Positions 2,493-50,448 of a stretch of 64,000 nucleotides of DNA are shown in pieces. Origin of the DNA: Dipteris shenzhenensis (taxonomy: Eukaryota); NCBI GenBank assembly GCA_047967505.1, contig CM106538.1. The stretch is one strand, 5' to 3'. The first letter of the stretch is position 1. Each line of letters begins with the position of its first letter. Under the pieces are notes generated by a model. It was not told the origin of the DNA. It did no database searches and was given only the letters and a program-made list of their open reading frames with translations. Made by a program: the position numbers and the translations under genes.

Positions 2493-3009
2493 TGATGTCA
2501 CTGTATAGAGAGAGGGCCTTGCTTGTGGGTGTGCCCGCCCTGTCTGAGGATAGCGTAGAGAGTGAGGGCCTGTGATGTGGGTATGCCCGCCCCTCTTGCG
2601 AGGCATAGGTAGAGTAGGGTTTGGCAAGATGCTCAGTGCGGGCGGGCGTGCTAGCCATGTGGAGGCTGTTCAGCGCCTTGCTGAGGCCTGCTTTGCTGCC
2701 GCGTGGCAGTCCCTTTGGAGGCGCCTAGGGAGTCGTCTCCCTTGTGAGCAGGTAGGCTGGAGGTCATAGAGGACAGCCCCTTCAGCTGGCTGGTGCAGCT
2801 CCCTTTGGAGGGCCAAGGGCAGTCGGCCCTAGAGCCTAGCCTGTCGGCTGGCTGGCCCATGCAATAGGGCCTTGTACCGCCCTTTATAGAGGCCTGTTTG
2901 GGTTGGCCCCTAGGGTTGTGAGTCGACCCTGAAGGCAGCAGCTCGGCCCAGCCCCTTGCTGGCCGATAGGGGCTATTTATAGGGCCCCCCCTCAGCCCTC
3001 ATTTCATCA
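2493..3009 (-). mobile_element. Probable solo LTR, about 517 bp
   Basis: TGATG...CATCA inverted termini; flanks tctct/tctca (4 of 5 TSD match); ctataaatag TATA box on the minus strand near 2975. Confidence 0.7.
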
Positions 3010-3129
3010 TCTCACTGTTGAGGCCTGACAGAAGTGCAGAGCCAGCCCAGTGAGCACTTGAGGAGCAGGGCGGTGAAGCAATCCATATCCACTCATGCTC
3101 CCTTCCACTTGGTTGTTGAGCTGTTTGTT

Positions 3130-5145
3130 CCAAGCTCTCGAGCAGCCCATTGGTTCCGAGGTTTTCCCCCAGATGTAGCGGAGTTTACTCCAAAGATTAC
3201 TTGCAGTTCTCAAGTGCCTTTCTCTCCTTCTTAGTCTGGTGTGTGTGTGAGGCATGCTGTCTCTCACCGACACTCTTTGAGCTTTACATTGATGTGATCA
3301 ATTCCTTCATAGACCGCCTGGGAGGCAAAGGATCACTACTGACCGAACTCATGATACAGATATTACTATATGCCGATGACGTAGTCCTTATCTCATCCTC
3401 AGGAGAGAGACCTCACATGCAATACTCCGTTGACTCAGCTTCAGTTATCGAGATGAGCTAGTAGAGATAGTGCAGTCCTGCACCTATCTAGGAGTAGTCT
3501 TCTCAAGACCCCTCTTCACTATGACACATGTAGCCCATACATGACTCACACGGGGGCGAGGTAATCTAGCCCGATTGGAAAGACAGTGCTTCTAGGCACA
3601 CTTTTAGGATCAACCGACGAAGTGCTGGCTCTTCGATACGCTAGTGCGGCTGACTGCCATGTATGCAGTACCCTTCTGGGGATGTGACCTAGTGATAGCA
3701 GAGTGGAGGAGATTCGAGTGGCTACAGGTGACTATGGGACCTAGGATGATTTGGAGCAAGCCCTCAGTCCTTCATGAGATAGTACAGACATAGTTCGCCA
3801 TGACAACACTTCAGATTGATGCCATCTTCCAAACAGTGACATTCATTCACAGAGTTTGGGACTTACCTCAATGGAGACTATCAGGCTGTCTCTGGAGTCA
3901 TCCAGTCGAGTAGTTGAGAGCGGGGCGGACACATGGTATGCACGTATATCCACCTGGTTTGCCAGACACAGGATTCAGATGGACAAGCTCCCTCCCTTTC
4001 AGTACATTATGGGTGCACCCCCTGAGTCGATCCCACGAGATGAGATTACCCGTATCATACGGTTAGACCTACTCCATCTCAGGCTTGGAGGGTACATCAG
4101 AAGCTCCCCACCAAGACCCAAATCTACCATGACCCTTTCCTGAGAGTCTCGAAGGAGGGATTCATTGTCAGACCCCAGTATCTAGAGGATAGAGTAGTCT
4201 CACACGCACTGAGGATCACAATTGGGCAGCTGCGGTTTCATCCCATGAGCTTAGGATTGAGACATGGAGAGCAGCACGTATACCTAGATAGCAATGAATC
4301 TGCATGCTATGCATCCTAGGAGAGATTGACACAGAGGAGCACTTTCTTTGCACCTGCCCAGCCTACTACGAGATCTGAGTGCGATACCACTATCCCTATC
4401 AGGATGGGAGTGGGTTCGGCCCACTATCACAACTGATCCAGAATTCCATGACTAGGTTTGCATTAGGCTTTATCTGCTTGAGATGTGCCGACACAGGGAG
4501 ACCCTGCTACGAGAGATCAGGGAGCAGCAACAGACCATAAGTTACAGAGGCTGACCAAACACAGCGGCATGTCACAAATTTCTTTGCATTTGAGTCAGCT
4601 CCAGGACACAGTGGGGTAGAGGAGGACGAGCTAGCTGATATGCGAGCAGTATGGATTGCCGAGAGAGGACTACAGAGGCTACCCGTGGCACGGAGAGCGA
4701 CCAGAGCACACTCGATTGAGGTCCGACCTATAACAGCTTTCCTTAGAGGAGACCGCCCGAGACGAGGGGTCACTCTGAACATAGCTCAGTGGGTTCAGAG
4801 ATCGAGGAGACCATGTCCCCCTCTGCCATCACAGCATGAGACGGCCAGATAGACCTAGATCCAAGACATTTTCGCCACTCATAGACGAGACACCACAGTG
4901 CCACGTTTCGGATTCTGAGTTCTAGTCCTAGTTCAAGCTCTCTTCCTACCATCAGATAGTACATAGTATTTGATTTTGCTTGAGCTATCGAGCTCTTTAT
5001 TTCAGCATAGTACTCAGCAAGGGCCTTAGTGCGCCCTTCGCTCTAGCCCTTTGTGGCTTGTATGAGTTTTTTTCCCTTTTGGTGTTTTTTGCACTTTGTC
5101 CCATAGGCCCATGAGGCCATCCACGGACGTTAATATTTATTTATT
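3130..5145 (+). mobile_element. 5'-truncated RTE/RTE-X-like LINE, family B: RT C-half, Cys/His domain, 3' UTR
   Basis: CLSPTLFELYID...LLYADDVVL; ICMLC..GEIDTEEHFLCTCPAYYEI; ends in (TTTA)n next to (CT)n. Confidence 0.85.
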
Positions 5146-5239: not shown

Positions 5240-7060
5240 AGTTTAAGACTCAAAGTCTTTTGGTTGTACAAAGCAAGTGAGCCTTCCAGATGACGGCCAT
5301 CTAAGAAGGCCATTATATAAAATCAGGTTGTGCATTGCTCCCATCTCCCGTAGGTGTTGACCATATCCTGTGACTTGTGCATCCTCTGAGTGTCCCACTA
5401 AACCAAGCTCTGCTAGGTCAATCTCTAATAGGGCCGTCTCCAAAGTCAAGCAAGTTGACTTGTTTGCTCCCTATTCTTGCATTGAAGTCACCTAAAAGGA
5501 GGATCTCCCCTTGCATAGAGAACTCCGTAATGTCATCATATATCTCATATGGGATGTGCCCCTCTGTGGTGACCTCACGGGCATATGATGATGTATCTAG
5601 AGGAAAGTAGCACACTCCAATGAAAATGGCCCTTGCATCTTGTGGCTGCAACCAAACCCACATGTGACATGCATGTTCCTCTCGACGCATCACATATATG
5701 AGCGGTCGTAAATGTGATTTAAAGAGGATAGCTACACCCCCAAAGCCTCGGACTCCAGTGTCTCTCCTCAAATGTCTTCATGTAGGCTCATTCTCACGTG
5801 TACCCTGTTACTACAGGTAGCCCTATCTTTGGGCTCTTGTATATCTCTGTATAGAAACTGATGTCTCTATCAATGTATGTCTCTGAAAATCTCTGAAAAG
5901 CCTCTCCGATTTAACCAAAGAGTGCCATTATTACAATTCCATAAAGCTATCTTTACTCAGCTCTACAGCACAATCGTATCAGTCCAACACTGTCATGTGT
6001 CGCCTGCATCCCTATCTTCCCTTGCCTCCCTTGCTACTCCCCTACATGTTTAGGGTTGGAGCGCGACCAACAAGGGTCACAGTGGCCTTGGTTAGACGAA
6101 AAGCTACGACCAAGAGACGTACCAAGACTGCACCCTTGAGGGGGCGACATCGTTCTATTGCTGACCTCATGCCTCCACTTCCACAACCCCATTCAGCCTG
6201 ATGTCCCTTTCTTTCTCATACTCATAAAAGTAGATCTATCTGCTGCTCCCCTGAATATCACTATTATAGGTCTAGACAGTCGATCATCCTTGCCTATTTT
6301 CCATGCCCCTTCAAAGGTGAGATTGATGCCCATTTTGGTGATCAATGGCTTGGCATCTGCCATCGGAGTGTCATCCAATGGTAGGCCTCTAACCAGGACA
6401 TTCAGTGATTTGAGGTGTCCCCTTTTCTCCTCCTCTAATGCATCAGAGATAATCTACTTTTTTTGGAGCTGATTTGCCTTTCTTGACCACTTAGTCCACT
6501 CTTTCATTTTTGCCCGCCCTTCATTAATTTGCTGAGAGAGTTCTTTGTGTTTCCCTTGCATGGTGGCTTGTAGGGCTGCCATATTCTTCTTGAGTTTGAT
6601 ATTCTCTGCTTTGAATTCCTCCAAATCTTTACAAGCATTATTCTTCTTCCCCTCTAGCGCTAGCATTGAGAAAAATGCAAAGAGGGGTACATTATTATTC
6701 TCTCATCCACAATTGTTTGCCTATATTCTCAAAATTGCTAGTAGGTGACCTTTTTCTGCATGTACACTCTGAATTGACCTCATAATAGATGTTACAACTT
6801 GATTGCTATCATGTAACCTGCATCTTTCCTATTTGAACCCCCAATTGCACTTGCATTTCAATCTTCCATTTTCCCATCTCCTCTTCCATGGAGGCACGCA
6901 ACTTATGCATAGTCTCTTCATTGTTTTCCTTCATCCTTTTCTGCAAGCATTCAATCTCTGCATCCTGCCTTTTTTGGACATCTTTCAAAGTGGTGAAGCA
7001 TGATTTGATGTACTGGTCGCTGCCTTTCTGATCATTAATCTTTTGAATGCCCATCCATAT
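5240..7060 (-). mobile_element. 3'-truncated LINE: coiled-coil ORF1 and AP endonuclease, degenerate
   Basis: GGVAILFK...FIGVCYFP...EILLLGDFNARIG (5418-5771); coiled-coil ORFs 6454-7054; GAWKIG...RPIIVIF. GC-rich 7337-7790 may be its 5' UTR. Confidence 0.8.
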
Positions 7061-7824
7061 AGTGCTGTACTTTCTTTCCTTCTCTCCTTTAGTCTTTTTC
7101 TCAAATGAGCTGTCTATTTTTCACAAATTCCCTGGTTTTTCCTTTGGAGAGAGATAGAAAACGAGTGCATTTGTATATGCTTACAGCCCGTGGGTGGTCC
7201 TCAGGTGGTCTTCAATCGGACTGGTACCCTCCTGCACCCTTTCATTGATACATAAGTAAACGACTTTCCTATTTGCTCTGTAATCTGATGTACTGGTTGT
7301 TTTCTTGCAGATACAAATGTTGCTGAGGTTCCCTGGTCAGAGCAGAGGCTGAGGGGCTATAGATGCTGGTGGAGGGGGGGTGTAGATATAAAGTTGAGGC
7401 TTGGAGGCAGTCTGGAGTAGGGTCACAAGCCCTTGGGGGGAAGGTGGAGGGCTGGAGCGGCCCCCCCAGCTGTTTGTGCTGCTGCTAGGGGGCCACGGGA
7501 GGTCACGAAAGCCTGTAAGGGTGGGCGGAACCCCCCGCAATGGAACTGCAGGGGCGGGGTACTGATGGCGGCCTGGGGGTGGGTCTGGAGCAGCCCCATA
7601 CGGTTGGTTCTTGGCAGCAGCAGCAGCCCACAAAGGGCTGGGAGGTAGGTGCAGGGGGCCTAGAGGCCCGTGCAGCAGTATGGGGGCTGGGAGGTAGGCG
7701 CAGCAGCCGCTTCTGCTGGCGCAAACAGCTCAAGACAGCAGGGAAGCCCACGGCAACCTGAGGGACAGCCCCAGTGACCTGAGTTACAGCCCAAGGGAAT
7801 ATGAGGGAAGCAAACCGCGAGAGA

Positions 7825-10710
7825 GAAAGAAGGAAAGAAAGAAAGAAATTTTATTAAAGTCTTCCGAAGACCGATGGGTCTATGAGACTGTGAAACCCTG
7901 GTACAATCAAGCTGTGAGGGTAGAGCTACTAAATGAGCATCCACACCAATGCATAATGTAAAAATAATGCAAAATGATAGTTCTAAGTACTAAGTACAAC
8001 ATGGTCATGTCGGTGATTGAACTACAAATCAGTCGCATCATCATCATCCTCCGCATCCTCATCAGGACATCGGAGGTGGATGAGGCACTGGAGGCAGGAA
8101 ATCGGCAATACAATGATGTCGGCCACTCGAGGGTGCGGTCCTGTGACGTCTCCTAGTCATAGCTCTACGCCTAACAAGGGCTACATTAACCCCTGTTGGA
8201 CGGGCTCCGATGGTGAACATGGAGGCGATTTCCCCGAGTGTAATTTGTGCGTCTACCCTCTGTTTGAACTGTTGAGTCACTCGCTCTGAGTACCGACAAT
8301 CATGTTGAGGTCTCATCTCGGGGGGGTCCAAGAAATCTGGTTGAAAGAACTCTGTGATAGAGCTTTGGGAGGGGTCTACCAAGGAAGAAGTCTGCTCTTG
8401 TCTCTGTGATCGAAGTATCTTCTCGCGGTGCCTAACTGCCCCATGAATGAAGCTTGCCAAGCATCTTTGATCTGGATAGGAGAGGAATCGGGACAGGGCC
8501 CCATAACTATCTCTGAAGAGGCAGTAGAAACGCCCGCGGATCTCATAATAGATGGGACACCTGAAGATGAAGTGCTCCTTTGTGTCAACCTCCTGCATAT
8601 CGCATAATGTGCATAAGCGCCTCTCCCTAGGTAGACGCTCTGCCCTGCCGCTCTCTATACGAAGTCTGTGAAGAGACCCGGAAGTGCCCAATAGAGATCC
8701 TCAATGAGTGGGGTACATGGATCCGCGTGTACCCTGGTGGATCAATGAAATCCTCATCTGTGATATGTAAGCAATGATCTCTGTAGAAGCTAAGCTTCAC
8801 TAGGAGTTCGCTCAGTGCCAACCAACTCTGGAATGTGCATAGCTATAAGAGATCCTCACGGATCACCTGGTTGACATCATGTGACATGAGGGGGGAGAAA
8901 GGAGCATGGCAGTAGAATGGAATCCTCCCTGAAGTCAAGAAGTGGTACTTGACGGGCGCCTGTCCTCGCGTTGAAGTCTCCAACTAGGAGGACTTCTCCG
9001 CAGCTCAAGAAATCAACAATGGACTGATATAGGACTGCAAATGGAGATATCTCAGTCTCATCTTAGATATCCCTCGCAAAGTGAGGGAAGTAGCATACTG
9101 CAACAAACAGATCCGTGCTGTCCACGTGTCGAATACGGATCCAAAGAAATCTGGAATGATTCTCTCTCTGCTCTATCGAAATGGTTTCCGAAAGGGTGGA
9201 TCTGTAGAGAACTGCTACCTCTCCTGATCCATGTACCCCCCCTATGTCCCTAGTCTCATCTTTGTAGGCAGACTCCCATGTGTACCCACTAACTACTGGT
9301 AAGGGACACTCTGGACTTTGATGTGTCTCCATGTAAAAGGCTATGTCGCGGCCAGTATAGGATTCAAGAAATTCCCTAGTTCTGACCATAAGGTACCATT
9401 ACAGTTCCAAATGGTGCAGGACGGAAAACTGAGTCTCATGACCCCGCCTCCATATGCGGAAAGGGGGGGGATGCTCGACGGGGGTCTATAAGAAGTTGTA
9501 CATCCCTAACTACTGCCCACTTCCCCTCCTTACGTGCCTGATCACGCTGCTGCAACAGGCAATGCTTCTCCTCAACCTGTAGAGGGGTAAGGTCCTCATC
9601 CATGGAGATCACCGAATGATCTTGTAGTACTGACCTACGTTGTAAAACTCAAAGTCGGGCCTAAGCGTCATGGAACTGTATGATCAGGGGCTACTCTTGG
9701 TTGGGGTCTCTCCCCACCCTCCATGCCCTCTTCATCCTGTGCTCAACTACACCCAAAGTAGTGGCCACGAAAGTCTCCTCGATCACAGATTGCATGCTCA
9801 CAATCTAGGCCTCTACTACCGGTGTACTCCCTGTAACTGTACGAGTCGAGAAGAACTCCTTCCTGAGCTGAACCATGTCCTGCCTCAGCACCTAGATGAT
9901 ACTGGCTTGCTCCTAGATATGTTGAGCCTACTCCTAAACCACTCTAGCCAAAACCTGAGTGAACCTAGCCTACCCCAGGGCGTAGTGTCAACTCCACCTC
10001 CCTGACTCGTATACTATGTACCTCCGTGAGTAAAGTCTCCTATCTGTCCGGTGGGTCGATGAGACCCTATCCTAGCTGAAACTGAAAGGACTAAGGTACA
10101 AAGGTAGGGGGGTGTGGCAAGATAGTGGGTGGTGGTCGTGCCATTTGAGCAAAGATGGCGGATACCTCACGTACAGATACAGGGGTCTCAATGGTCCCAA
10201 TCGGATAGGAGGTAGGGGGCTGAGTCGGTGAAGCAATCCCAGTGGTATGAGGGAGAGGTGGCTGGCTGAGAGGGAGAGGGGATGGGAAAGTCGAGAATAG
10301 TGGCCCTCCGTGCGTCACCTCCTATGGGGGTGACATGGGTGGTGGAGCGGCTGGGGTCTCCAGAGCAACAGGTGAGGAGGACCCAAACGAAACACTGTCT
10401 GTCACGGGAAGGGGTGTCGAAGCAGTGGATTTGATTGGCGTAGTCGAGGTTGAAGTTGACTTCAGTGGGAGGGCTGAAGCAGGCCCTCTAAGCGGAGGTG
10501 TAGATGTCGGTGGGACAACTCCTGTGGGAGCAGATATGGCTCTGGCTGATGATGATGATGATGACGATGACCCTTTATGGATCGCTCAGATGTCCACTCC
10601 AAGCCCACTCTGGTTGAGGCGTCTATTGACATCCTCAAGCTTCGCCTGCACTTGTTGAGGTTTGTCTTTTTCCTTCTTAGAATCTCTTCCCCTTGCCTCC
10701 TTTCCCATCG
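7825..10710 (-). mobile_element. RTE-X-like LINE family A, copy 1: ORF1, endonuclease N-half, internal deletion of RT, C-terminal Cys/His domain, (TTTC)n tail
   Basis: ORF1 ATG at 10708; TIWNCNG and [10 protein letters not shown] endonuclease motifs; LRIESGR...LCTLC...KEHFIFRCPIY; tail at about 7825-7848. Confidence 0.85.
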
Positions 10711-11731: not shown

Positions 11732-14700
11732 CTACACTCGCATAGAAGGAAACCCAATGATACTTTGCCATTGACTCCACAACATTTACATGATGCAAAG
11801 ATGTTGACATTCATGTCATTCTACGAGTGTGATGTGCACTGCAATGGGATTATTTATATATGGAGACAGAAGAGGCTACCTTGTCTTGCAAGGCAAAAAC
11901 TTGGCGTCCACCTGATAATGTACCCCTCGGAGTAGCTGTAAGAATGTAAGATTCTCCACTCTCGAGCGTTCCCTTTTGCCGTAGAAGGCTATGCCCCTCA
12001 TTTGAAAGACTGTGTTGTGTGAGTGAAGGAGCTGGAGAACTTTGTTCTAGATGAATTGAGTCTGACACTATTTCTGACTGTGAAGATGCATCTTTAAAGA
12101 TCGGTTCCAAAAGAGTAACATTTCTTGGCCTGTTTTGGCAGTTTCAACAATGCTCATCAATATGATAACAGTCTCATGATACCAAGAAAACGTTAATGAA
12201 AACATAACAAAGGAAAAAAGGAAAAGTAAACATCTACATAAAGAGTCTGACTTTATCTCAAGAGTTTGGCCAGGCAAGCAATCCAGCCGATCCCCAGAAT
12301 TGACTTCCAGGTATACACGCTTCATCGATCCTTCTCCTGCTCTCTCTACATTATCAACCGTATCATCTTTATGCACAACCATTGTGCTGAAATCGCCTGG
12401 TTCTTCTGAGATAGAAAAAGTTGCTTATCCAGTTTAGTTTTTTTGGTGGAAGAAACTGTGGACTATCAAAGACAATAGATAGTCAAGGAAGGTAAGAATT
12501 AACACCTTTCAATTCTCCTTCCGTGAAAACATTTGGCATCCCTTCCTGTATAGAATCCTTTGTAGCAGCATTGGGAAGTGTAGCTTTGTCAGATTTGATG
12601 AGAACAGTTCCACCATATGCTTCACTCGCCTTCGCTGTTTTTCCTTTTTCCCAAGACCATTGCTGTCGTACAAATTTTATAATCCTTAAAGATAAGCACA
12701 TCATAGAAAGGTGACCAACCAAGTAAGTTATGTTCTCAATCCCAATACAAGACATCTCAAAGGAGTGTATACATTATAAAAACAGCCTCATGCAGCTCCC
12801 ACCAATAACTTCACCTGCTTCTCTATAGCTTTTACACACACAGAACCAGCATATCACATTTCTCTTCCACAGACAGCTGTGGCCTTTAACTCTTGTGGAG
12901 GAAATAAAGCTACAAGGATTCATACTCCCTACCTGACTTGGACTTAATCCACCATCAGATGCAGCAGCTTCTGTTTCCTGATTGAGTACTGGGGGTACAG
13001 TTTCCAATCTGATTAACCTGGCCTCTTCAATTTTGGGAAGCATTGAACTAGCTGTACCATGACATTTTGCTATGAACTTGTGCTGCATTCAAAAATTTAC
13101 CACAATACTGCTTCTTTAAGTGTAGAAAGATGAGAGAAATAAGCTATTGGAAGCTCAGAAAGAAGTTACTTAAAACTCTGGTTCCTAAAGGAGATGGACA
13201 AATTATTTCTTGTAGTTTACCTTTATTTTTTTATTAGGATTAGATAGAAATGATAGAAGTGAATTCATTGTTTCAAACACGATTTAAATAATCTCCCTGT
13301 GGATTTGCCAAGACTTACTTTGAGCATTTCAGTGGCAGAGGGACGCAATCTTGTTTCCTTGGTGAGACATTTAGCAACAAAATCATGAAAAACCAATGAC
13401 CTGCACCAAATAAGCTATCAAGATATTTTAAGAGAGGTAAAATTTGAGGGTGCCACAAATTAATGGCATTCAATATCTTATTTTCCCCTTTGAAAGATAG
13501 ATCAGGCACTTTCTTTACTTATATTCCCAACAGTCAGTAAAAGGTAACCAAAGCATACACCATGCAGAAACAATAATAGAAGTGTTGAAAGACAAGTGAT
13601 CCGATTTCTCATAAAGTATTCCAAACTGCAAACACACACTTAATGGCATGAATAAGGTCAGGACGGGTCACGAGACATTTGAGCCACTTCCTCATATACA
13701 CCACCTTGGTAAAAGCAGAGACTCATACAAGTCAGTCATACACTTGTACATATTCCAGACAGGATCTTGCAAGATACATTATTTGTAGAGACTATCATAG
13801 GACAACATGCAAGCTTGCAATCAAATATCGATGAATTCAGACATGAAAGCAAAGGCATACATGTCATCATTCACCGCACAAGCATATACATGAGCATGCA
13901 TTAAGACCTGAATATGGGTCAACTATCTGGGAGATAGTGCACTTTTTACAAATGAGAATGTGGGAGCATTACAACGAAGCATTTTGAAAAGTTCAAAAAG
14001 TTTCCAAACAATTTACGGCTATTGAATGTGGCTGGGAGATATGTGAGTGTGCACCAAATAAAGGCCCCTTCCCCTCCATTCATCTCAACTCTCATGTGGT
14101 AAGATAAAAACATACCCAATGTTCAAATCTACATGTATTTGTACTATATAAAAATTTGGGAACCACATACAAGCACAGTACCGAAAAACAACCCCCTTGA
14201 AATCTCTACCCAAGGGGGTATCTTGTCTTCGCATATGACCTGGTTGACCTCATGATATCTGAGTAAGAGGAAGGTGCATCAATCATGTATTGGAAGGGGA
14301 GAAAAGAAAAGAAAGTTTACTATAGTCTATGGAAGACCGATGGGTCTGTGAGAAACCTGATACAACAAGCAGAAAGGGTGGGGCTACTAAACGAGCACCA
14401 TCACCCATGCTGGATGCTAAGTCCTAAGTAGTACATAGTCATATCATCAATCATGACATCATCATCAAAATCATAATCCTCATCCACATGTCGATCAATC
14501 CACACCACCACGCCCAAGCCAACACAATGAGGCCTCGCAAGGTGTAAATGTCAAGGGGAGCTCGTGAGAGGTAGAAAGAAAGAAAGAAAGTTTATTAAAG
14601 TCTTCGGAAGACCGATGGATCTATGAGACTGTGAAACCCTAGTACAATCAAGCTGTGAGGGTGGAGCTACTAAACGAGCATCCACACCCTGGGCTGAAGT

Positions 14701-17700
14701 ACTCTGGAAACGTCTCAAAATACCTAGTAGCTTCTAGTCATGGTGGCACATGTTCATCCAAAAGGATATAGCCACCTATGAATGTACAAGGAATGTCAGA
14801 TCATGAAACAAAGGGAACCAAGTGTAAAGCCTGTCAGAAGACTTCGAACTTGGGACGAGGAAGTGGCTTTGTAAACATCTCTGCGATGTTGTCCTCTGTG
14901 GGAAGATAGGACAACTCTATGTCTCTTGCTAACAACCGCTCCCGAACATAATGATAGTGAACTTTAATATGCTTGGTACGCGCATGAAACACTGGGTTAC
15001 GCGCAATGGCCAAAGCACTCTGGCTGTCAGTATAGACAATAGTGGAGGATGTCTGGCAAATACCAAGATTTGTAAGTGACTATTGAAGCCAAACACACTC
15101 TACTGTAGTGGTGAAAGCTGCCCTGTACTCAGCCTCACAGCTAGACGTGGCAACTGTCCGTTGCTTCTTGCTGAGCCAAGAAATATATGAATTTCCAAGC
15201 AAAAAACAATTGCCAGTATGTGACACTCTGGTGTCGGAACATCCTGCCCAGTCACTATCCGTGTAAGCATGCATGGTAAGTGAACCCTGATCACCATAGA
15301 AGAGGGCTAAATCTTGAGTGCCTCTGAGATATCTGAAGACTCTCTTCACTGCCTGCCAATGCTGTGAACTGAGGATGTGCATGAATCTACTGAGCTGAGA
15401 TACTGCATACTGCAAGTCAGGTCTGGTGTGACATAAATAAATAAGGCATCCAACAGCTTGCTGATAAAGAGTGATATCACATGGTGGGCTCCCATCATGA
15501 GCTGAGAATTTGAAGCCAGGGTCCACTGGAGTAGAGATTGGCTTGCAATCCTTAAACTGAAAACGATCAAGGAGCTGTCCAATATACTTGGACTGAGACA
15601 TCATGATACCCCCCTCAACATGAGCAAACTGAATGCCCAAAAAATAATGGAGCCGTCCCATGTCTGACATGTCAAAAATCTGCTGCAAATCAGCCTTGAA
15701 GGCTGCAATTTGCTGAGTATCTGGGCCCGTGATAAGCATATCATCCACATATCAAATCAGCACTAAAAAATCAGATCCACTCGCACACAAATAAAGAGTG
15801 GGTTCTGTGGGACTATTCTGAAAACCAAGGGATAGTAAGTGTGCATGAATTTTGGCATACCATGTCCTGGGCACCTGCTTCAAACCATAAAGGGCTTTTC
15901 TAAGCCGGCATACCTTATTTTCAGAATTAACAACCTCAAAGCCAGGAGGTTGTGTGACATAAACTTCTTCCTGCAGATCCCTATGAAGAAAAGCGGTCTT
16001 GATGTCAAGTTGGTGCACTTGCCAATGATAATGGGCTGCAATGGCAATGACACATCAAATGGTAGTAATCTTGGATGTGGGAGCAAATGTCTCCTCAAAG
16101 TCAATGCCTTGTTGTTGGGCATACCCTTTTGCAACAAGACGGGCTTTGTGTCGATCTATGCTGCCATCAGATTTCCTTTTTAATTTGTAGACCCACCGCG
16201 TTCCAATGGCATGCTTGCCAGGTGGGAGATCTACTAATTCCCATGTGTCATTTTTGGCAATAGATTGTAACTCAGCTTTCATTGCATCCATCCACTCTTT
16301 GCTGTCAGAAGCATCTTTATGGCACAAAGGCTCTTCATTGCAAGTTGTAGCAAGGAGTGCAAACTCAAGAAAGTGACCATGCTGTCTATTCCCTGATCTT
16401 GTCCGGGCAGCAAAAGGCTGATCTTGTTTGCTGTCCCTCAATGTGTCAAGAAGCCATTTGGGAACTTGCCTTTGCTGTCTATTGACAGCTCTTTCTTCAA
16501 TGACTGCATCATGAGTAATGGGATCATTTTGTGCCGGAAGAGAAACTTGCAAATCAGCATGAGGTTGGGGGTGATTATTGCTTAGTGGAGGGCTTGCAAG
16601 AGGCTCATGTTGTTGCTCAAAATCCTCCTCTGATGATGGCAGAGGTAACCAAGATTCAAAGGCATCAAACATGTCAACATCTGGCTTTGCTTTGCAGTCC
16701 ACAAGAGGAGAAGCTGAATGTTCAGCAAAGATAACATCTCTACTGACAATAATCTTCCCAGTATTTGGTTGATATAACCGATACCCTCTGCTCTCCTGGC
16801 TGTAACCAATGAATATGCATTTGATCATCAAGCTTATGTCCCAGCTGAGATGGAACATGAACATTGCAAGAGACCCAAAAACTTTCATGTGTGAAAGTGA
16901 AGGCTTCATGCCTTTCCATGCTTCATAAGGTGTAATAGTCTTTAATGCCCGTGTAGGTGATCTATTCAGCACATAGTTGGCACACATTACTGCATCAAGC
17001 CAAAATTTATTGGGCAAAGACTTGGCCTTAAGCATGCATCTGGGCATCTCCATTGTGGACCTGTTTTTCCTTTCAGAAACAGGATTCTGCTGAGGAGTGT
17101 AAGGAGTAGTGCATGAGTGAATAATGCCTCGTGAGGATAGGAATGCATCAAACTCCTTTGACATATACTCACTCCCCCTATCTGTGTTGAGGGTGACAAG
17201 CTTGCATCCTGATTCATTCTCAACCATATTCAGCCATCTCTGAAAGCATAAGAAAACTTCAGATTTGGCCTTTAAAGGATATACCCAGCAATACCTTGTG
17301 AAATCATCAATGAGAGTCATGAAATACTTGTATTCTCCAATGGCATTTGTCTTCATTGGGCCATAGACATCATTGTGTACTAGCTGCAGTTTCCTTTGTG
17401 AGAGTTTTGGACAATTCTTTTGAAAAGGAAATCGATGCATCTTACCCAAAAGACAACCCTCACACACATGTTTGGAAACTGTGTGAGTCTGAGGTACATC
17501 ATTTGCCATCTGCTGTGAATGTAGATTTGCAAGAGCTCTATAATTGAGATGGCCCATTCTCTCATGCCAAAGATGAGTTTCAGCAAGCTGTGAATCTGAA
17601 ATAGCCAATGCTTCAATAGAAAGTGCAGCTGAATGATGATCAAGGTGATAAAGCCCTTTTTGCAAAGTGCCAGTGAGAACTATGGCATTGTCATCACAAA

Positions 17701-20700
17701 GATCATATACTAGGCATCTGTAGCCATCAAAAATTACTCTAAAACCTGAAGTAGCAATTGCTGAAATTGAAATCAAGTTGACTTCAATGCCAGGCACAAA
17801 AAGAACATTTGTCAAAGTGACAGGATGGCTGGAAATGGATGTGAGCTGCACATCTCCAACTTCTTTTACAGCATACGAAGCATTATTGGCACATGTAACA
17901 GTCCCCCCTCGAGGTGCATCAACTAGAGAATGAAACAACTGTCTGCAAGATGTGACATGCTTGGAAGCACCACTATCAAAGTACCAGGACTGAGCATCAT
18001 TAGCAGTAAATAGTGCATCAGCTTTGGAGGGATCAAATGAGCAATGAACAGCCCATGCCCAGTCATCCTGAAGAGCATGTGCATGTGAAGCATCTGCTGG
18101 CTCATGGGATTCAATGGCATGTGAGGCATTAACTGTCAATCCTGCTTTCTTTTTCTCCGAAGCAATGCGCTTCCTGCATTCTGAAATGTCATGTTTAGGC
18201 TTGCGACAATAGTTGCATCTTTTCTTCTTTCCCTTATCTGCTGCATTTTTAGATGCATGGGAGGAATTGCAGCTGCTATGCGTTGAAGAATTGCAGCTGC
18301 TGTGCGCAGATTTTGGCTTGCCCATAGGCTTGGAAGCCTTGCCTCTTCCTGTCTGCTGTGAAGCAAATGCATGATTGCTGTGAAGCAAATGCATGATCAA
18401 GAATAATGGCTTGTCTGTTAGCTCTACTTTGCTCTTCTTGCAAAAGCGAAGTAACTAGCTGGTCAAAAGAATAGTGGTCAGGATTACCCATGGCCACTAC
18501 TTGAAGGGTTGTATCTGGCAGTCCATTCAATGTGGTACTGACAAGCTGTGAATTTGGCACCACCTCATCAATGTTGGCAAGCTGTTTCATGAGGTCCTTG
18601 ATCTTTGGCAAATATGCATCCATTGACTCACTATCATTCATATTCACTTCCTGTAATTGCCTTCTCAAATATGCAACACGAGCTTCATTGCGAATCTGAT
18701 ATAGAGAAGCCAATTTATCCCAAGCATCCTTTGCTGTCCTGCAAGACCGGATGTGTGTAATAATGATTCTCTTGCAAGATAAAGCAATGCATGAATGTGC
18801 ATTTGCATCTCTTGCATCCCATCTTGACTGTTCTTGAGTTGGAAGAGCAGCAGCAGGAGTGCTAGAGGAAGAGGCATCAGGAGTACCCCCTGCAGAAGAA
18901 CCAGCAGTAGAAACAACCACTGAAGGATTGGCTGGCCTCAAATCAGCCCCAGAAACAATATTCCACAAATGCTTTGCAACAAGAATATGTTTCATGAGAT
19001 AAGACCACATCGGATAGTTGGTGCCATTCAACTTATCATCTTCACGAAGAACTCCAAATAAATCTTGATTGTTCCCAGCCATAGCAACTGTGATAACCTG
19101 TAAAAGACTTGAAAACCCAAAAGCCTCAAGGCTATCACTGCAAAAAGCTTGCTGTCCCAAAAAATGACAGCAAATATCTGCAAATTTCTGACCCAAATCA
19201 AAGGGCAAATGCAGATCTGACCCAAATGTGACTGTGACAGGCAATGTTCACTGCAAAAACAGCAAATTTGGCAAAAGCCCCAAATTTATTGAGGGCAAAT
19301 AGGCCAAAACAAGGGCAAATTCAGGAAAGCCCTAAATTTTGCTGAAATTTTTGCAAATGTGACCCAATGTATGCAAATCTGACTCAATGTCCTGCAAATG
19401 TAACTTAATGTCCTGCAAATGTAACTTAATGTCCTGCAATCTGACCCAATGTAGTGCAATTTAAACAAGAAATTGCAGACTAAATCCCAAAACTCCAATA
19501 TTCTTGCAAGAAATTGCAATCAAAGGAGGTGAAAGGAAATGAAAGCCCCAAATTTACCAATGTCCTGCAAAATCCCCAAATCTGCAAATGTTTGTAGATG
19601 ACTGCAGTGAGACCAAGAACCTGATTCAAGCCAATACCAAAACAAGTACGGAACCTGTGGTGAAGCTGTACGGAATACGCAGATGAAGTACAAGTTGTAC
19701 GACTGAAGGTACGTGTGTACGGGAAGCTGATACAGACTGCTGACGACTGAAGGTACGGTGAAAATACTTTGTGCTCCTATGCAGGTACAATCACACGGCG
19801 TAGATACCTTGTACGACGAAGGTATATGAAACGGCGTATGAAAGAGCGTGATGTACGGATGGTGTACGGCACATCGTACGGTACGGCGTACGAAAGAGCT
19901 CGATGTACGGGTGAAGTACGCGCAGTGTACGGTACACGTACGACGATGCAGGTACAACGATGCAGTTCTACTTACGTACGGACTGTACGGCACAAATCCT
20001 GCTGATACCACTGAATGTACAAACAGGTTGGGAATGTGTCTACCAGTAGGGCAGAGAACTCCCAATGAGCAAATGGAAGACTCGGGGACTGAGGAGAGCT
20101 GGAAGAGTAGAGCAATACCTGCTCTGATACCACTGTAGATACAAAACGAAGAGAGAGAGTGCAGGTACAAGACGAGTCGATAGAGTAGTCACGAGAAAAC
20201 TTAGATAAGATATGAAAACACAAGTACAAAGTACTTGTACCTAGACCTAGGACTAAGTGTCCTAGGTGTCACATAGGACCAAGTGTCCTATGTGGCCTAA
20301 AAGGCACTAGCACTATAAGTGCCTACACTTATGCCTACAAGGCACATACCATGGCCTGTAGGGCATCACTAGAACCACCAGAAGATGGCCTACGCAGTGT
20401 CTGAGTACCTCATGAATGAAACCTGCCAAACACGCTGGTCTGGATAGGAGAGGAATCGGACCAAAATCCCATAGCTATCTCTGAAGAGACAGTAGAAACA
20501 CCCTCGGATCTCATAATAAACAAGACACCGGAAGATGAAGTGCTCCTCTGTCTCAACCTCTTGCATGTCACACAATCTGCATATGCGCCTCTCCCTGGGT
20601 GGTCACTCTACTCTGCCGCTCTCGAATGAAGGCTATGTGAAGAGACCCGGACCTGCCCAAGAGAGATACTCAATGAGTGGGGTAGGTAAATTTGTGTGTG

Positions 20701-23700
20701 ATATGTAAGAAGTGATCTCTGTAGAAGCTAAGCTTCACTGAGTTCACTTGGTCCCAACCAGGTCCGAAATGTGTGTAGCTGTAATAGATCCTCACAGATA
20801 ACCTGGTTGACCTCGTGTGATAGGAGGGGAGAAAACGGAGCATCCATGTTGTACTGGAAGGGAGATAGTCTATCCATGTGGAGCCCCAGCTGCTCAAACC
20901 ATCTCTCTGTGCGTGCATACCAGCACCTCTAGTCCCCACCTGCTGCAAGTGCCATAGAAGAGGACAAAGCTAGCCATGGTAGTAGAGTTATTACTAACCA
21001 AAATGTTTGTAGCTCCTTCTCGTTCCAAGGAACAAAGTCTAGTTTCTTTCTACGTATCAGTCTATAGTATTCGCGTAGCATATCTGGTTCACTCGAAAGA
21101 CTATTTTTGGTTTCGAATATGAGCTGACGGCGTTTGGCCTTACACTCATCATCGTACCATCTATTACAAGGTACGGTCCCAGGGGGTGGTGGGTGGGTGG
21201 AGCGGGTGGTGTGGGAAAAAGCGTGAAGGATAGTCTCGTGTGGTGAGCGGGTGACAAGGACAGAAGATCCTCTAAAAGGGGTATGAAGTCAATATAAGCG
21301 AGAAGTATGTACAGAGATGAGTGATCGCGATCAAAGCGTATATCATGGTAGATGCAGTAAGAACTCGGTGGGATGGAAGGTGCTATGCAACGTGAAGTGG
21401 AGATGCTACAGAAAAGATAGGTATGATCAGCCCCTGGAGGGAGAGGTGCTACAGTGAAGTCAGTGATGCAAGATGTGAAGGCAGGGGATCCCATGATATA
21501 ATCCATAACGCTGGAGCCTCCCCCATGTGGAAAGCATGTGAAACCATCTGAGGTGGGCCATCTGTCAAGCCCATTATAGATAATGAGATCATGCATCCTG
21601 CCAAGGTCTACTATGGCCTGTCCATAAGATGTGAATAGACCTGGTCTGTCAGCCAAAACCCGTAGCATATCTGCATCCTCAAGGTCAATGTCTGGCAGTA
21701 GAGTAGAATCATCCCTGAAGTCGAGGAGTAGTACTTGATGGGTGCCTGTCCTCGCGTTGAAGTCCCCCACTAGAAGGACTTCTCCATGGCTAGAGAAGTC
21801 AACAATGAACTGATAGCAAATGGAGATGTATCATCCTCACCTCAGATATCTCTGGCAAAGTGGAAGGTCTCAGGGGAGAAGTAGCAAACTGCAACAAACA
21901 GATCCCGGCTGTCCATGTGCCGAATCCAGATCCAAAAAAACCTGGAATGTGCATCTCTCTGCTCTACTGAAATGGTCCCCAAAAGTGTGAATCTGAAAAG
22001 GATTGCAACTCCACCTGAGCCTCGAGTCCACCCTGTATCCCTTGTCTCATCTTTGTAGGCAGACTCTCATGTATATCCGCTGACTACTGGAAGTGGGCGC
22101 TCTAGACTCTGATGTGTTTCTGTATAAAAGACTATGTCGCGACCTGTATAGGATTCCGAGAAGTTCCCTGGTTCTGACCATAAGGTACCATTACAGTTCC
22201 AAATGGTGCAGGATAGGATCTCGGATGACTGAGTCTCATAGACCCCGCTTCCCTATGTAGGGGAGGACTGATGCCCTACAAGGGCCTATCATAAGTCGTC
22301 CCTCTCGTACCACTGTCCACTTCCTCTCCTTCCGGGCTTGATCCCGCTGCTGCAGCAAAACGCGCCTCTCCTCAAGCTATAGAGGGGTGAGGTCATCATC
22401 CATGGAGATCGCTAGCTGATCTCGAAGCATTGACCTGCATCGTAGAGCTGAAAGTCGTGCTTGAGTGTCCTCTAACTGTGCGATCAAGGGTTGCTCTCGG
22501 TTGGGGTCTCTCCCCACCCCCCATGCCCTCTCTATCCTATGCTCAACCACACCTAGAGTGGCAGCCACAAAAGCAGTTGCATCTACCATCAGTATAGCCT
22601 CAGTGCATGGGATCCCGCATACTCTGATGTTGAGAGCCTTACTGGCTCTCTATTGCTACTGCTACTCCATGAGGGTAGCTGCAACGGTTACCCTAGCAGG
22701 TTCCCGTTTGGCCACGTCAACCCGTCTGGATGTCTCCTCAATACATGCTCGCAATCTGTGCCTCGACAACCAAGGTACTCCCTGGGACTGTGTATGGCTG
22801 TAACCTCCTGTCAGAGCTGCAAGATATCATGTCTGAGTCCCTGAATGAGACCAGCCTGCTCCTGAATGGCCCGAGCATGCTCCTGTATGATGCGGCTCTA
22901 CTCCTAGTTGAAGCGGCCTGCTCTTGTGCGAAGTGTGTCAGCTAGCTGAAACTGTGATGGCTGTGACATGAAAGTGTGGGGATGAGTCCAAAAGCTGGGC
23001 GGTGACTGGGTGAATTGGGTGAGGTACGGAGATGACAGTGGAATGGATAAGGCAGTCCCAATGGAGCGTGGGTTGACTGAGAGAGAGAGGGGAGAGTGAA
23101 GCATAATGCAGAGCAGTGTATGACACCTCCGAAGTAGGTATCATAAGTGGTGCGAGAGCTGTAACAAGAGAGGAAGGGAAGGGAACAACCGGCACCACGG
23201 GCATGAGATTGATAGTGGCTATAGCTGTAGTTGGGATGTAGAGGCTGTAGCTGAAACTAGTGCTGAAGTGGAAGCCGAAGTTGAAAGTGAGGATGTAGAG
23301 GGAGCTGAGATTGGAACTGGAACTAAGACTGAAGCGGGCTGAAGTCGAAGTAGAGATAGAGGGCGCTGAGACTGGAACTAAAACTGAAGTGGGGGCTGAA
23401 GTCGGAGAAGGGGTAAAGGCTGAAGCTAAGGCTGAGGTGGGCCCCGCCTTTGCTTTGTTGTCAACCCCGAGTCCACTTCGGTTGACGTGCGTGTTCACAT
23501 ACTCAAGTTTCAGTTGTGTCTATTGTTGTTTTTTGATGTTGTTGTCGTCTTTCTTGGCTTTATCCGTTCTCTCTCGGCTTTTCCCATTGCCTTGGGCCGA
23601 TTCGTGTCCCCTTGATGCTGGTTTTAGTGCACGATCGGCGGGAGCGGGAGCACAGGCTCACCCCCCATGGTGGGAAGCACACCCAAGGCAAGGAAGGTAG

Positions 23701-26700
23701 GGTAGTCGGAGGCAGGTCGGAGATAGCAGCGGGAGGGAGGAGTTGTAGAGGAGGAGCTGCAATGTGGAGGGCAGCCGGAGGAGGAGAGGTGGAGAGGCGA
23801 AGGAGGAAGCTGCCCACGAGGGGGGGCTGAGGCATGGCAAAAGGGGGGGGGGGGGGGGGGGGGAGGCGGTGCAGAAGGCAGGCGGGAGTGAATGGGCGGC
23901 CTAGGCGGGGGCGAAGAGGCAGGCCAATGGCTCTTTGCAGTGATAGCCTTGAGGCTTTTGTTTTTTTCAGGTCTCTTTCAGGGTATCACATTTGCTACGG
24001 CTGGGAACAATCAAGATCTATTTGGCATTCTTCGTGAAGATGATAAGTTGGATGGCACCAACTATCCGATGTGGTCTTATCTCATGAAACATATTCTTGT
24101 TGCAAAGCATTTGTGGAATATTGTTTTTGGGGTTGATCTAAGGCCAGCCAATGCTACAGTGGTTGCCTATACTGCTGGTTCCTCTGCAGGGAGTACTTCT
24201 CCTGATGCCTTATCTTCTAGCACTCATGCTACTGCTCCCCCAACTCAGGAACAGTCAAGATGGGATGCAAGAGATGCAAATGCACATTCATGTATTGCTT
24301 TATCATGCAAGAGAATCATTATTCCACACATCCGGTCTTGCAAGACAGCAAAGGATGCTTGGGACAAATTGGCTTCTCTCTATCAGATTCGCAATGAGGC
24401 ACATGTTGCATATTTGAGAAGGCGATTACAGGAAGTTAGTATGAATAAAGGTGATTCTATGGATGCATATCTGACAAAGGTCAAGGACCTCATGGAACAA
24501 CTTGCCAATATTGATGAGGTGGTGCCAAATTCTCAGCTTATTAGTACCACATTCAATGGATTGCCAGATACATATCAAGGGTTTCCTACAACCCTTCAAT
24601 TAGTGGCCATGGGTAATCCAGACCACTATTCTTTTGATCAACTAGTTACTTTGCTTTTGCAAGAAGAGCAAAGTTGTGCTAATAGACAAGCCATTATTCC
24701 TGATCATGCATTTGCTTCACAGCAGACAGGAAGAGGCAAGGCTTCCAAGCCTATGAGCAAGCCTAAATCTGCGAATAGTAGCTGCAATTCCTCCCATGCA
24801 TCTAAAAATAATGCAGATAAGTCAAAGAAGAAAAGATGCAACTATTGTTGCAAGCCTGGACACGACATTTCAGAATGCATGAAGCGCATTGCTTCGGAGA
24901 AAAAGAAAGTAGGATTGACAGTTAATGCCTCACATGCTATTGAATCCCATGAGCCAGCAGATGCTTCACATGCACATGCTCTCCAGGATGATTGGGCATG
25001 GGCTGTCCATTGCTCATTTGATCCCTCCAAAGCTGATGCACTCTTTATTGCTAATGATGCTCAGTCTTGGTATTTTGATAGTGGTGCTTCCAAGCACGTC
25101 ACAGTTGTTTCATTCGTTAGCTGATGCACCTCGAGGGGGGATTGTCACATGTACTAATAATGCTTCCTATACTCTAAAAGGAATTGGAGATGTGCAGCTC
25201 ACATCCATTTCAAGCCATCCTGTCACTTTGACAAATATTCTTTTGTGCCTGGAATTGAAGTCAACTTGATTTCTATTTCAGCAATTGCAACTTCAGGTTT
25301 CAGAGTGATTTTTGATGGCTACAGATGCCTAGTTTATGATCTTCGTGATGACAATGCCATAGTTCTCACTGGCAATTTGCAAAAGGGGCTTTATCACCTT
25401 GATCATCACTCAGCTACACTTTCTATTGAACCATTTCCTATTTCAGATTCACAGCTTGCTGAAACTCATCTTTGGCATGAGAGAATGGGTCATCTCAATG
25501 ATAGAGCTCTTGCAAAGCTACATTCACAACAGATGGCAAATGATGTACCTCAAACTCACATAGTTTTCAAACATGTGTGTGAGGGTTGTCTTTTGGGTAA
25601 GATGCATCGGTTTCCTATTCAAAAGAATTGTCCAAAACTCTCACAAAGGAAATTGCAGCTAGTGCACAGTGATGTCTGTGGCCCAATGAAGACAAATGCC
25701 ATTGGGGGGTACAAGTATTTCATGACTCTCATTGATGACTTCACAAGATATTGCTGGGTATATCCTTTAAAGGCCAAATCTGAAGTTTTCTTATGCTTTC
25801 AGAGGTAGCTGAATATGGTTGAGGATGAATCAAGATGCAAGCTTGTCACCCTCAACACAGATAGGGGGGGAGAGTATATGTCAAAGGAGTTTGGTGCATT
25901 TTTGTCTTCACCAGGCATTGTTCACTCATGCACTACTCCTTACACTCCTCAGTAGAATCCTGTTTCTGAAAGGAAAAATAGGTCCACAATGGACATGGCC
26001 GGATGCATGCTTAAGGCCAAGTCTTTGTCCAATAAATTTTGGCTTGATGCAGTGATGTGTGCCAACTATGTGCTGAATAGATCACCCACAAGGGCATTGA
26101 AGACTGTTAGACCTTATGAAGCATAGAAAGCTAGGAAGCCTTCACTTTCAAACATGAGAGTTTTTGGGTCTCTTGCATATGTTCATGTACCATCTCAGCT
26201 GAGACATAAGCTTGATGACAAGGCAATCAAATGCATATTTATTGGTTACAACCAAAAGAGCAGAGGGTATCGGTTATACCAACCAAATACTCGGAAGATT
26301 ATTGTCAGTACAGATGTAATCTTCGCTGAACATTCAGCTTCTCCTCTTGTGGACTGCAACACTAAGCCCGATGTTGACATGTTTGATGCCTTTGACTCTT
26401 GGTTACCTCTGCCTTCCTTAGAGGAAGACTTTGACCAGCAACATGAGCCTCCTGCAGGCCCTCCAACAAGCAATGATCAGCCGCTACCCCATGCTGATTT
26501 GCAGGTTTCTCTTTCAGCACAAAATGATCCCACTATTCATGATGCAGTGATTGAAGAAAGAGCTGTCAATAGACAGCAAAGGCAAGTTCCCAGATGGCTT
26601 CTTGATACATTGAGGGACGGCAAACAAGATCAGCCTTTTGCTGCCCGGACAAGATCAGGGAATAGACAGATGCATGGTCACTTTCTTGAGTTTGCACTCC

Positions 26701-49603: not shown

Positions 49604-50417
49604 AAATATTTTTTAACGTCTCTAGGAGGCCTCACGGGCCTACGAGAAAAGGTACACATCAAAAAAAGAAACTACTACATCTAAGGAGAGAGGGAGTGCA
49701 CAAGGCATCTCCTACATAGTGCATAAAGCAGCTCACAGTTATTATAGAGCATACCTATATTCTAGTGCTATCATACTATGACCTTTATTGCATCATTTTA
49801 AGACTGACAGTCTTTGGGCTTAGATTTGATTTCTCTAATCAATCATTGTTCTTCACAGTAGACCGCCCATTTTCCAGCTTTCTTGGCTTCTTTCACTTTA
49901 GTGAGTTCAATAAATCTTTGCTTGAACTGAGTTGCAATGAGTTCTTCAGATATCCATATCTTCGAGCCCTTCAGTTTATGTGTTTGTTGGAGGATGGTGA
50001 CTTTTTCTGCACTTGATATTGGCTAGAAGTCGGGGCAAAAACTGCAACAGACGAGTACAAAGGCCTCATGGGGATGAGCGTCTTGATCTTGGGTGTCTTG
50101 GGCGTCTCCATATTGGCCTGTGCAAACTGGATAACCCCCCTCCTGCGGTAGTTAACCCCCGAGATGGGCTGGGGGGTTTCAGCCCAGCCCAGAGCCCTCC
50201 AACCTGGGGCCTGCTGCTGTTGCTGTAGTATGTACGCAACCCACCCCTACTGTGTGCGACCCAGCTGGCTGTTTTGCCCCCTGTACTGCCCGTTGTGTGA
50301 CCCTCTTGGGACCCGCTGCTGTGCGCGGCAACTGAGCTAGGGCTGGAGCGGCTATTCGCACTTATCTTGCAACCGAAGGTAGCTGCTCCTGCTACACTGC
50401 CTGCCCTTTAGGCTTGA

Positions 50418-50448
<31 letters not shown>

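Follow-up and report, generated by a model that had tools for sequence, protein, structure and literature searches.

Do some plant retrotransposons carry, in the tail of their own enzyme, a peptide that docks on PCNA? The question is raised by a 64,000-nucleotide stretch of the Dipteris shenzhenensis contig CM106538.1 (this whole stretch is called the window below), in which copies of two families of long interspersed nuclear element (LINE) encode, toward the end of their second open reading frame (ORF2), a short sequence resembling the PCNA-interacting protein (PIP) box. We conclude that this is a real, selected short linear motif of consensus Q-x-x-[I/L]-T-x-F-F, which lies in a C-terminal extension of ORF2 predicted to be disordered, and that its host elements belong to an APE-type LINE lineage of ferns, lycophytes and the plant from which the window comes. 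We infer from the sequence that PCNA is the partner, and we put the probability that the motif works as a canonical PIP box docking on PCNA at about 0.62.

All three motifs of the original prediction were found where it had placed them, QSSITEFF in two copies of family A (A1 and A2) and QRHVTNFF in the family B copy (Table 1), and all match the pattern Q..[ILMV]..FF. A six-frame scan of the whole window with this pattern returned five matches, namely these three and two background matches (at 23511 and 24827), one of which runs across a stop. Since the chance rate is about two per window, a single match carries little meaning. The three motifs go beyond chance because all of them occupy a homologous place, in frame and 63-68 residues beyond the last Cys of a CCHC zinc knuckle. 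The offset is 63 residues in family A and about 68 in family B, the latter counted by hand from the translation. QRHVTNFF does share the frame of EEHFLCTCP, as had been claimed, yet two in-frame stops separate them, and with these stops between knuckle and motif the family B copy is a pseudogene. It was also fair to call the two families divergent, as they are 36% identical over the 122 aligned columns from knuckle to motif.

Relatives of the A1 protein were collected by a phmmer search of its 212-residue frame against 1.84 billion cluster representatives, which gave 1448 hits at E<=1e-3. The best 150 of these, together with further hits from word-index searches, which supplied fragments and, via a 24-row profile, long proteins, made up a set of 157 proteins. 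The knuckle was recognisable in 105 of them (52 were dropped), and at least 75 residues followed it in 63 (42 more were dropped). The named relatives are the lycophyte Diphasiastrum complanatum, the ferns Adiantum nelumboides and Ceratopteris richardii, and, more distantly, Coleochaete scutata, the only named charophyte found; transcriptome entries of Pteridium aquilinum (bracken) are members of two of the clusters, formed at 90% identity, that contain long ORF2 proteins. With ferns, a lycophyte and a charophyte as relatives, the assignment to plant LINEs was sound. Matches in the protein atlas were eukaryotic clusters.

Between 45 and 110 residues after the knuckle, Q..[ILMV]..[FY][FY] was present in 16 of the 63 long tails; over 500 shuffles, the average was 0.16 and the highest count 3. 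The stricter form Q..[ILMV]..FF was present in 15 (shuffle mean 0.066, maximum 2), and the core [ILMV]T.[FY][FY] in 32 (mean 0.19, maximum 2), the core carriers being the 16 tails with Q-x-x-[ILMV]-x-x-[FY]-[FY] plus 16 more. When seven long proteins were added, a looser core was seen at offsets of 48-70 residues in 43 of 70 long tails, with one exception to that range, P0126, whose tail has an internal duplication. The search pattern for this looser core fixed positions 4, 7 and 8. Of the 43 motifs, 23 have Q and 11 have T at position 1, and 39 have T at position 5; positions 2, 3 and 6 change freely. Conservation of the motif extends far outside the window, to relatives in ferns and lycophytes and to ORF2 proteins that are intact and full-length.

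The intact proteins also fix where the motif lies. Eight long ORF2 proteins, drawn from seven clusters at 90% identity, were scanned; seven have 1201-1271 residues, with endonuclease and reverse transcriptase, and the eighth, P0158, has 1005 and lacks the endonuclease part. Each contains exactly one match to Q..[ILMV]..[FYW][FYW] over its whole length, 57-61 residues past the knuckle and 68-98 residues from the C-terminus. These motifs fall at residues 930-1169; the endonuclease occupies residues ~5-240 and the reverse transcriptase (RT) ~509-765, and there is no canonical match between endonuclease and RT in any of the eight. The motif is therefore part of ORF2 rather than of sequence beyond its stop, since the intact proteins run on for 68-98 residues to a conserved C-terminus and the tails of A1 and A2 retain a dN/dS (ratio of non-synonymous to synonymous change) of 0.45. 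The motif, described earlier as lying at the ORF2 C-terminus, is located in a C-terminal extension of ~100-160 residues; within that extension, it is internal rather than at the extreme end. A position at the extreme C-terminus, suggested by the stop that follows FF in A2, was rejected because intact relatives and A1 read on.

Comparison of A1 with A2 from the knuckle to FF gave a proportion of synonymous differences (pS) of 0.60, a proportion of non-synonymous differences (pN) of 0.15 and a dN/dS of 0.14 (109 codons). Within the eight motif codons, there are three synonymous and no non-synonymous differences. The value for the tail past FF, which was obtained over 85 codons, fits coding sequence under weaker constraint. 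It might be argued that the motif arises by chance or mirrors conservation at the nucleotide level, for example of an RNA element at the 3' end to which the RT responds, given that about two strict matches per window are expected anyway and that different copies of these LINEs have well-conserved DNA in their 3' region. However, the gap between observed and shuffled counts (16 of 63 versus 0.16), the intact frames that read through the motif in all eight long proteins, the low dN/dS with purely synonymous change in the motif, and the free change of positions 2, 3 and 6 while positions 1, 4, 5, 7 and 8 are kept all argue against this. Counts, intact frames and dN/dS effectively refute such a reading, and we consider it barely credible.

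Pairwise identities among the seven intact fern lineages point the same way. Mean identity is 0.68 over the eight motif columns, 0.28 over the 20 columns before the motif and 0.15 over the 20 columns after it; the folded knuckle domain reaches 0.58 and the rest of the tail 0.29. The motif is an island of conservation in these alignments, as is characteristic of short linear motifs.

What might such a motif bind? According to PMC3973308, the canonical PIP signature is Q/N-x-x-psi-x-x-theta-theta, and a Thr at position 5 (T5) gives a high affinity for PCNA. This signature is present in the three window copies, in 16 of the 63 long-tailed relatives and in all eight long ORF2 proteins. Docking on PCNA is the most likely function because the positions that are conserved, Q1, the aliphatic residue at 4, T5 and the aromatic residues at 7 and 8, coincide with the published signature. 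In such a complex, Q1, the aliphatic side chain and both aromatic ones would dock into the Q-pocket and the hydrophobic pocket of a PCNA subunit. The ORF2 protein (ORF2p) would in this way be tethered to the clamps that are loaded at replication forks or at repair gaps, and the tether could either direct the element towards suitable DNA or recruit PCNA-dependent enzymes to finish the insertion. We also infer that the motif affects retrotransposition.

The predicted structure of the tail bears on how the motif would be presented. An AlphaFold2 model of P0164, covering 763 residues (RT, C-terminal domain and tail) and built from a 49-row alignment, had a mean pLDDT of 76.9 and a pTM of 0.71. It is confident up to a helix at 635-653, with 10-residue block means of 86-95 over residues 631-660. 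By contrast, pLDDT falls below 50 at 657-687, the region containing the motif (665-672), where DSSP assigns a single helical turn at 668-671. The model is supportive of a disordered context for the motif. An exposed, flexible region and a conserved motif between variable flanks are both features expected of a PIP box, and the model and the pairwise identities agree with them.

The human L1 element provides the obvious comparison, and also a different idea of what the motif might do. The original report of a link between L1 and PCNA is that of Taylor et al. in 2013. PCNA copurifies with the ORF2p of human L1, and retrotransposition depends on it, the PIP box having been credited with this binding (PMC5371812, PMC10830420). 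The human PIP-box helix, at residues ~404-419 in the interval between endonuclease and RT (tower/NTE), packs on the palm and fingers as a structural anchor (PMC10830420), and a 2025 cryo-EM study assigns the contact between ORF2p and PCNA to the wrist domain, where a non-canonical 'PUB' motif would make it, and not to the PIP box at 407-415 (PMC7617806). The premise taken as established at the outset, that human ORF2p binds PCNA through a PIP box between endonuclease and RT, is thus now contested. By analogy with the human 'PIP helix', the plant motif could be an intramolecular element, a short helix that packs on the protein's own RT or on nucleic acid and recruits nothing from the host. The human precedent, with PCNA argued to bind elsewhere (PMC10830420, PMC7617806), and the four-residue helix at 668-671 in the P0164 model are compatible with this idea. 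However, the low pLDDT over 657-687 and flank identities of 0.28 and 0.15 mark a linear motif within a linker that is flexible and do not fit a packed helix, and the same folded domains occur in relatives without the tail. We give an intramolecular role little credence.

The plant and human motifs are alike in that both are canonical Q-x-x-psi-x-x-theta-theta sequences in the ORF2 of an APE-type LINE. They differ in position and setting, as the human motif is a packed helix between endonuclease and RT, whereas the plant motif follows the CCHC domain in a predicted disordered tail and is absent from the linker or tower region. Furthermore, the plant motif carries the T5 that is linked to high affinity (PMC3973308). 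The two look independent in origin.

Several observations weigh against PCNA docking. Q1 is missing from 20 of the 43 motif-bearing tails, and one sub-lineage has its Q one residue out of register (TQRITTFF). The core motif was not found in 27 of the 70 long tails, which include decayed or frameshifted fragments and distant relatives with another tail. Some relatives, P0168 (from Coleochaete), P0135, P0139 and P0081, stop right after the CCHC domain, so the motif module is not essential to such enzymes. The alignment behind the structural model is shallow, and the database proteins come from automatic gene prediction, in many cases on short contigs, with some chimeric models among them. Finally, PIP-like motifs are promiscuous, with motifs of this shape able to bind Rev1 or Mlh1, so PCNA is not the sole possible reader.

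The last point leads to a partner other than PCNA, whether another replication or repair protein that recognises FF peptides, a nuclear import factor, or a partner encoded by the element, such as ORF1p. The conservation and the disorder would fit any peptide-docking function equally well, and the tails that lack Q1 are in keeping with a different reader. On the other hand, the best-conserved positions (Q1, aliphatic 4, T5, and aromatic 7 and 8) are those of high-affinity PCNA ligands (PMC3973308), and intact elements have the full canonical form. We therefore consider a non-PCNA partner unlikely and retain PCNA as the preferred one.

Binding to PCNA could also have a different outcome. In a PIP degron, contact with chromatin-loaded PCNA lets a ligase of the CRL4-Cdt2 type destroy the bound protein; for ORF2p, destruction in S phase would amount to host restraint or self-limitation. 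The motif resembles the PIP boxes and degrons of p21, Cdt1 and Set8, which read Q-x-x-psi-T-D-theta-theta with T5 and lie in disordered tails with basic residues nearby (PMC3973308, PMC12366268). Of the 43 motifs, 39 have T5 and 13 have T-D, and TD is described as rare and typical of CRL4-Cdt2 substrates (PMC3973308). A basic residue at +4 is present in P0160 and P0015. But this residue, which defines a degron, occurs in just two of the 13 TD motifs, as read from the aligned rows, and the +4 column holds mostly P, T or S, so that the LINE tails do not conserve the complete degron signature. We rejected a degron as a conserved feature of the lineage, the combination of T-D and basic +4 being absent as a rule, and regard degradation as a highly improbable explanation of the motif.

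If the tail does dock on PCNA as a PIP box, these elements would hook into replication or repair, which the differences outlined above suggest happens by a route other than that of human LINE-1. A broader and more doubtful proposal is that clamp docking is a general need of endonuclease-type LINEs, met by independent inventions: in mammalian L1 by a folded, non-canonical site in the wrist, and in the fern and lycophyte lineage by a disordered tail with a T5 PIP box, and a second one in some sub-lineages. One or two tail PIP boxes combined with a basic module could give ORF2p an advantage over the host's own PCNA clients in competing for clamps at forks or at repair gaps. Should the absence of the tail in Coleochaete hold as a pattern, the tail would be a gain of the land-plant era.

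Why LINEs need PCNA is unsettled even in human L1, where the classical PIP box proves to be a structural helix that is packed away and there is dispute over the true contact (PMC10830420 versus PMC7617806). A second, unrelated LINE lineage whose flexible tail exposes a PIP box under strong selection would supply comparative evidence that clamp recruitment is a selected trait. Active bracken elements would then constitute a simple, peptide-level system in which to ask what PCNA is needed for. The experimental handle is convenient, consisting of a 20-residue peptide, a plant PCNA that is easily made, and intact, transcribed elements in bracken.

PIP boxes have been described in other mobile-element enzymes. 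The transposases of pogo, Tigger and Lemi1, the last a plant element, have them, and pogo is a PCNA interactor by two-hybrid (PMC5371812). That review states that the function of the pogo-type motifs is unknown as well. These systems are similar to the LINEs discussed here in being mobile-element enzymes with a PIP box, and differ in being class II DDE transposases rather than reverse-transcribing elements. A full-text literature search, with most subscription journals outside its scope, found no C-terminal PIP box described for a plant or other non-mammalian LINE; it turned up human L1 papers, general PCNA work and a 2017 review.

The class of the host elements was determined from the intact relatives. 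P0161 matched the Pfam families Exo_endo_phos (E=2.2e-7) and RVT_1 (E=7e-33), and both endonuclease and RT were identified by Pfam in P0161 and P0159. With endonuclease and RT in one ORF, plus a CCHC domain, the motif-bearing elements are APE-type LINEs. A Foldseek search with the P0164 model gave structures of R2 and human L1 ORF2p as top matches, so that the predicted fold confirms a non-LTR RT core, from which the LINE clade is not assignable; the RTE-X-like label given to the elements at the outset is accordingly a tentative one. Plant L1 elements are typified by zf-RVT and a poly(A) tail. At E<=0.01, zf-RVT (PF13966) was not matched by the A1 C-terminal frame, P0161 or P0159, although the same model does match the Ceratopteris L1-type protein P0167. 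Lacking PF13966 and ending in (CTTT)n, the elements do not have the features of the plant L1 clade.

Other modules follow the motif in the tail. Fern proteins and window copies have in common a basic module, RGVTLxxAExxRxRRRPR, and a PRLHxRQIEEI helix, and several lineages share a conserved ...ILHPPISTGWS end. The weaker echoes noted earlier further down the tail, HHCIADFL in A1 and VRPITAFL in family B, were both found, and A2 has a counterpart (Table 1). A second PIP-like motif of this kind occurs in 12 of 38 relatives (shuffle mean 4.3, maximum 9), and one with Q in 5 of 38, compared to 0.34 in shuffles; some of these matches fall in chimeric gene models. The second motif is lineage-specific.

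A different tail is present in the distant relatives P0097, P0124, P0138, P0140, P0142 and P0150, which have the same CCHC domain and no PIP box after it. Theirs is lysine-rich, with repeated units like D-G-[LIM]-K-[LIM]-x-[IL] (for example ...KDGLRLKIIKI), and may be an alternative tail module.

Four fern gene models, P0080, P0123, P0126 and P0167, fuse the LINE tail and its PIP box to unrelated downstream sequence; in P0167, QSQLTDFF at residue 99 precedes an L1-type RT with zf-RVT. These are probably annotation chimeras, by which surveys of the motif could be misled. Where such annotations join a LINE tail to a host gene (P0080, P0123, P0167), the PIP box could be misread as a feature of a host replication protein.

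Three further searches were run. A metagenome scan with a narrow alignment found seven loci, all decayed copies, of which locus L001 alone covered the motif region and reads T*RITTFF, with a stop in the expected Q position. A PDB search with the 46 residues around the P0161 motif had no matches at E<=10, as expected of a short motif, and a search of sequencing runs with window positions 7950-9400 found no run and no RNA match.

Within the window itself, all copies of family A and family B are dead, and they represent fossils of elements that bore the module. Self-comparison of the window identified three family A copies with ~73-78% DNA identity. Pfam matches of the window fragments to RVT_1 and Exo_endo_phos were weak. 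The A1 frame stays open for 93 codons past FF, and HPPPMS at its end is followed by two stops; this is likely the true end of ORF2. Upstream, the endonuclease-like frames of A1 adjoin the C-terminal domain (8877-9398 and 8062-8842, minus strand), with the whole RT region gone. These frames, called endonuclease by visual similarity, had no Pfam match at E<=0.01. A1 is an internally deleted, non-autonomous derivative; the RT region that it has lost is kept by A2 (~51613-53086). In A2, a TAG comes straight after FF and a frameshift lies further on, the TAG being a secondary, later mutation.

Table 1. Positions of LINE copies and their coding and non-coding features in the window.
Feature	Position	Strand	Remarks
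Family A, copy A1	7820-9773	minus	
A1 endonuclease-like remnants	8877-9398	minus	Frames resemble endonuclease part of fern ORF2
A1 open frame	8062-8700	minus	C-terminal domain, linker, candidate PIP box, 93-codon tail ending HPPPMS
A1 CCHC zinc knuckle (CTLCDMQEVDTKEHFIFRC)	8557-8613	minus	In ORF2 C-terminal domain; homologous to knuckle of database proteins (1448, E<=1e-3)
A1 PIP-box motif QSSITEFF	8344-8367	minus	Codons CAA AGC TCT ATC ACA GAG TTC TTT
A1 basic tail module	8140-8193	minus	Counterpart of fern RGVTLxxAExxRxRRRPR
A1 second, weaker PIP-like motif HHCIADFL	8095-8118	minus	Near ORF2 end
A1 3' untranslated region	7833-8061	minus	(CTTT)n microsatellite at end (7833-7848); A2 similarity stops just past
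Family A, copy A2	50419 to ~53293	minus	
A2 reverse-transcriptase fragment	52460-52807	minus	Pfam RVT_1 E=0.0023, under curated cut-off
A2 CCHC zinc knuckle	51122-51178	minus	
A2 PIP-box motif QSSITEFF	50909-50932	minus	TAG directly after, 50906-50908
A2 second PIP-like motif QHSIADFM	50662-50685	minus	Frame shifted by indel
Family A, copy A3	20393-22573		Ends just past C-terminal domain; motif region gone
Family B copy	~3000-4852	plus	
Family B reverse-transcriptase fragment	3120-3458	plus	YADD box; Pfam RVT_1 E=6e-5, under curated cut-off
Family B CCHC zinc knuckle (CMLCILGEIDTEEHFLCTC)	4301-4357	plus	Frame shared with QRHVTNFF
Family B PIP-box motif QRHVTNFF	4562-4585	plus	
Family B second PIP-like motif VRPITAFL	4721-4744	plus	
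Family B basic tail module RGVTLNIAQWVQRSRRP	4763-4813	plus	Matches fern RGVTLxxAExxRxRRRPR

Family A elements end in an untranslated region of ~210 nucleotides followed by (CTTT)n (7833-7848 in A1, 50416-50447 in A2), beyond which similarity between the copies stops. Over the final ~150 nucleotides of this region, which include the small hairpin-like GTCTTCGGAAGAC, the copies resemble each other more closely than they do in much of the coding tail; such conservation suggests recognition of the 3' end by the RT.

Smaller pieces of related sequence are scattered through the window. At ~6040-6201 (plus strand) there is a 5'-truncated, family-A-like fragment with the last ~50 ORF2 codons only, ending ...RHRSIADLMPPLPQPHSA and then a stop. 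It starts downstream of the would-be PIP box, as expected of a 5'-truncated LINE insertion. The segment 14293-14484 (plus strand) matches the family A 3' untranslated region (7829-7952 and 50437-50631) with 73-75% identity, and could be a severely 5'-truncated copy or an element resembling a short interspersed nuclear element that shares the LINE 3' end. Upstream of A2 and on the same (minus) strand, 54338-54799 is an open frame with a gag-type CCHC knuckle and a lysine-rich stretch; it may represent either ORF1 of the element or a piece of some unrelated retroelement.

The window also holds other repeats. A 4.4-kb sequence occurs twice, at 14690-19148 (plus strand) and, inverted, at 23930-28363, with 90.6% identity and ~4.8 kb between the two; they could represent a further large repeat that is present twice, or else form one large palindrome. 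A dispersed repeat of ~0.8-1 kb is present in three copies (38985-39974, 44589-45576 and 29618-30413) with 76-93% identity, and short tandem duplications lie at 32757-33512, 33698-34229, 59497-59808 and 62257-62900.

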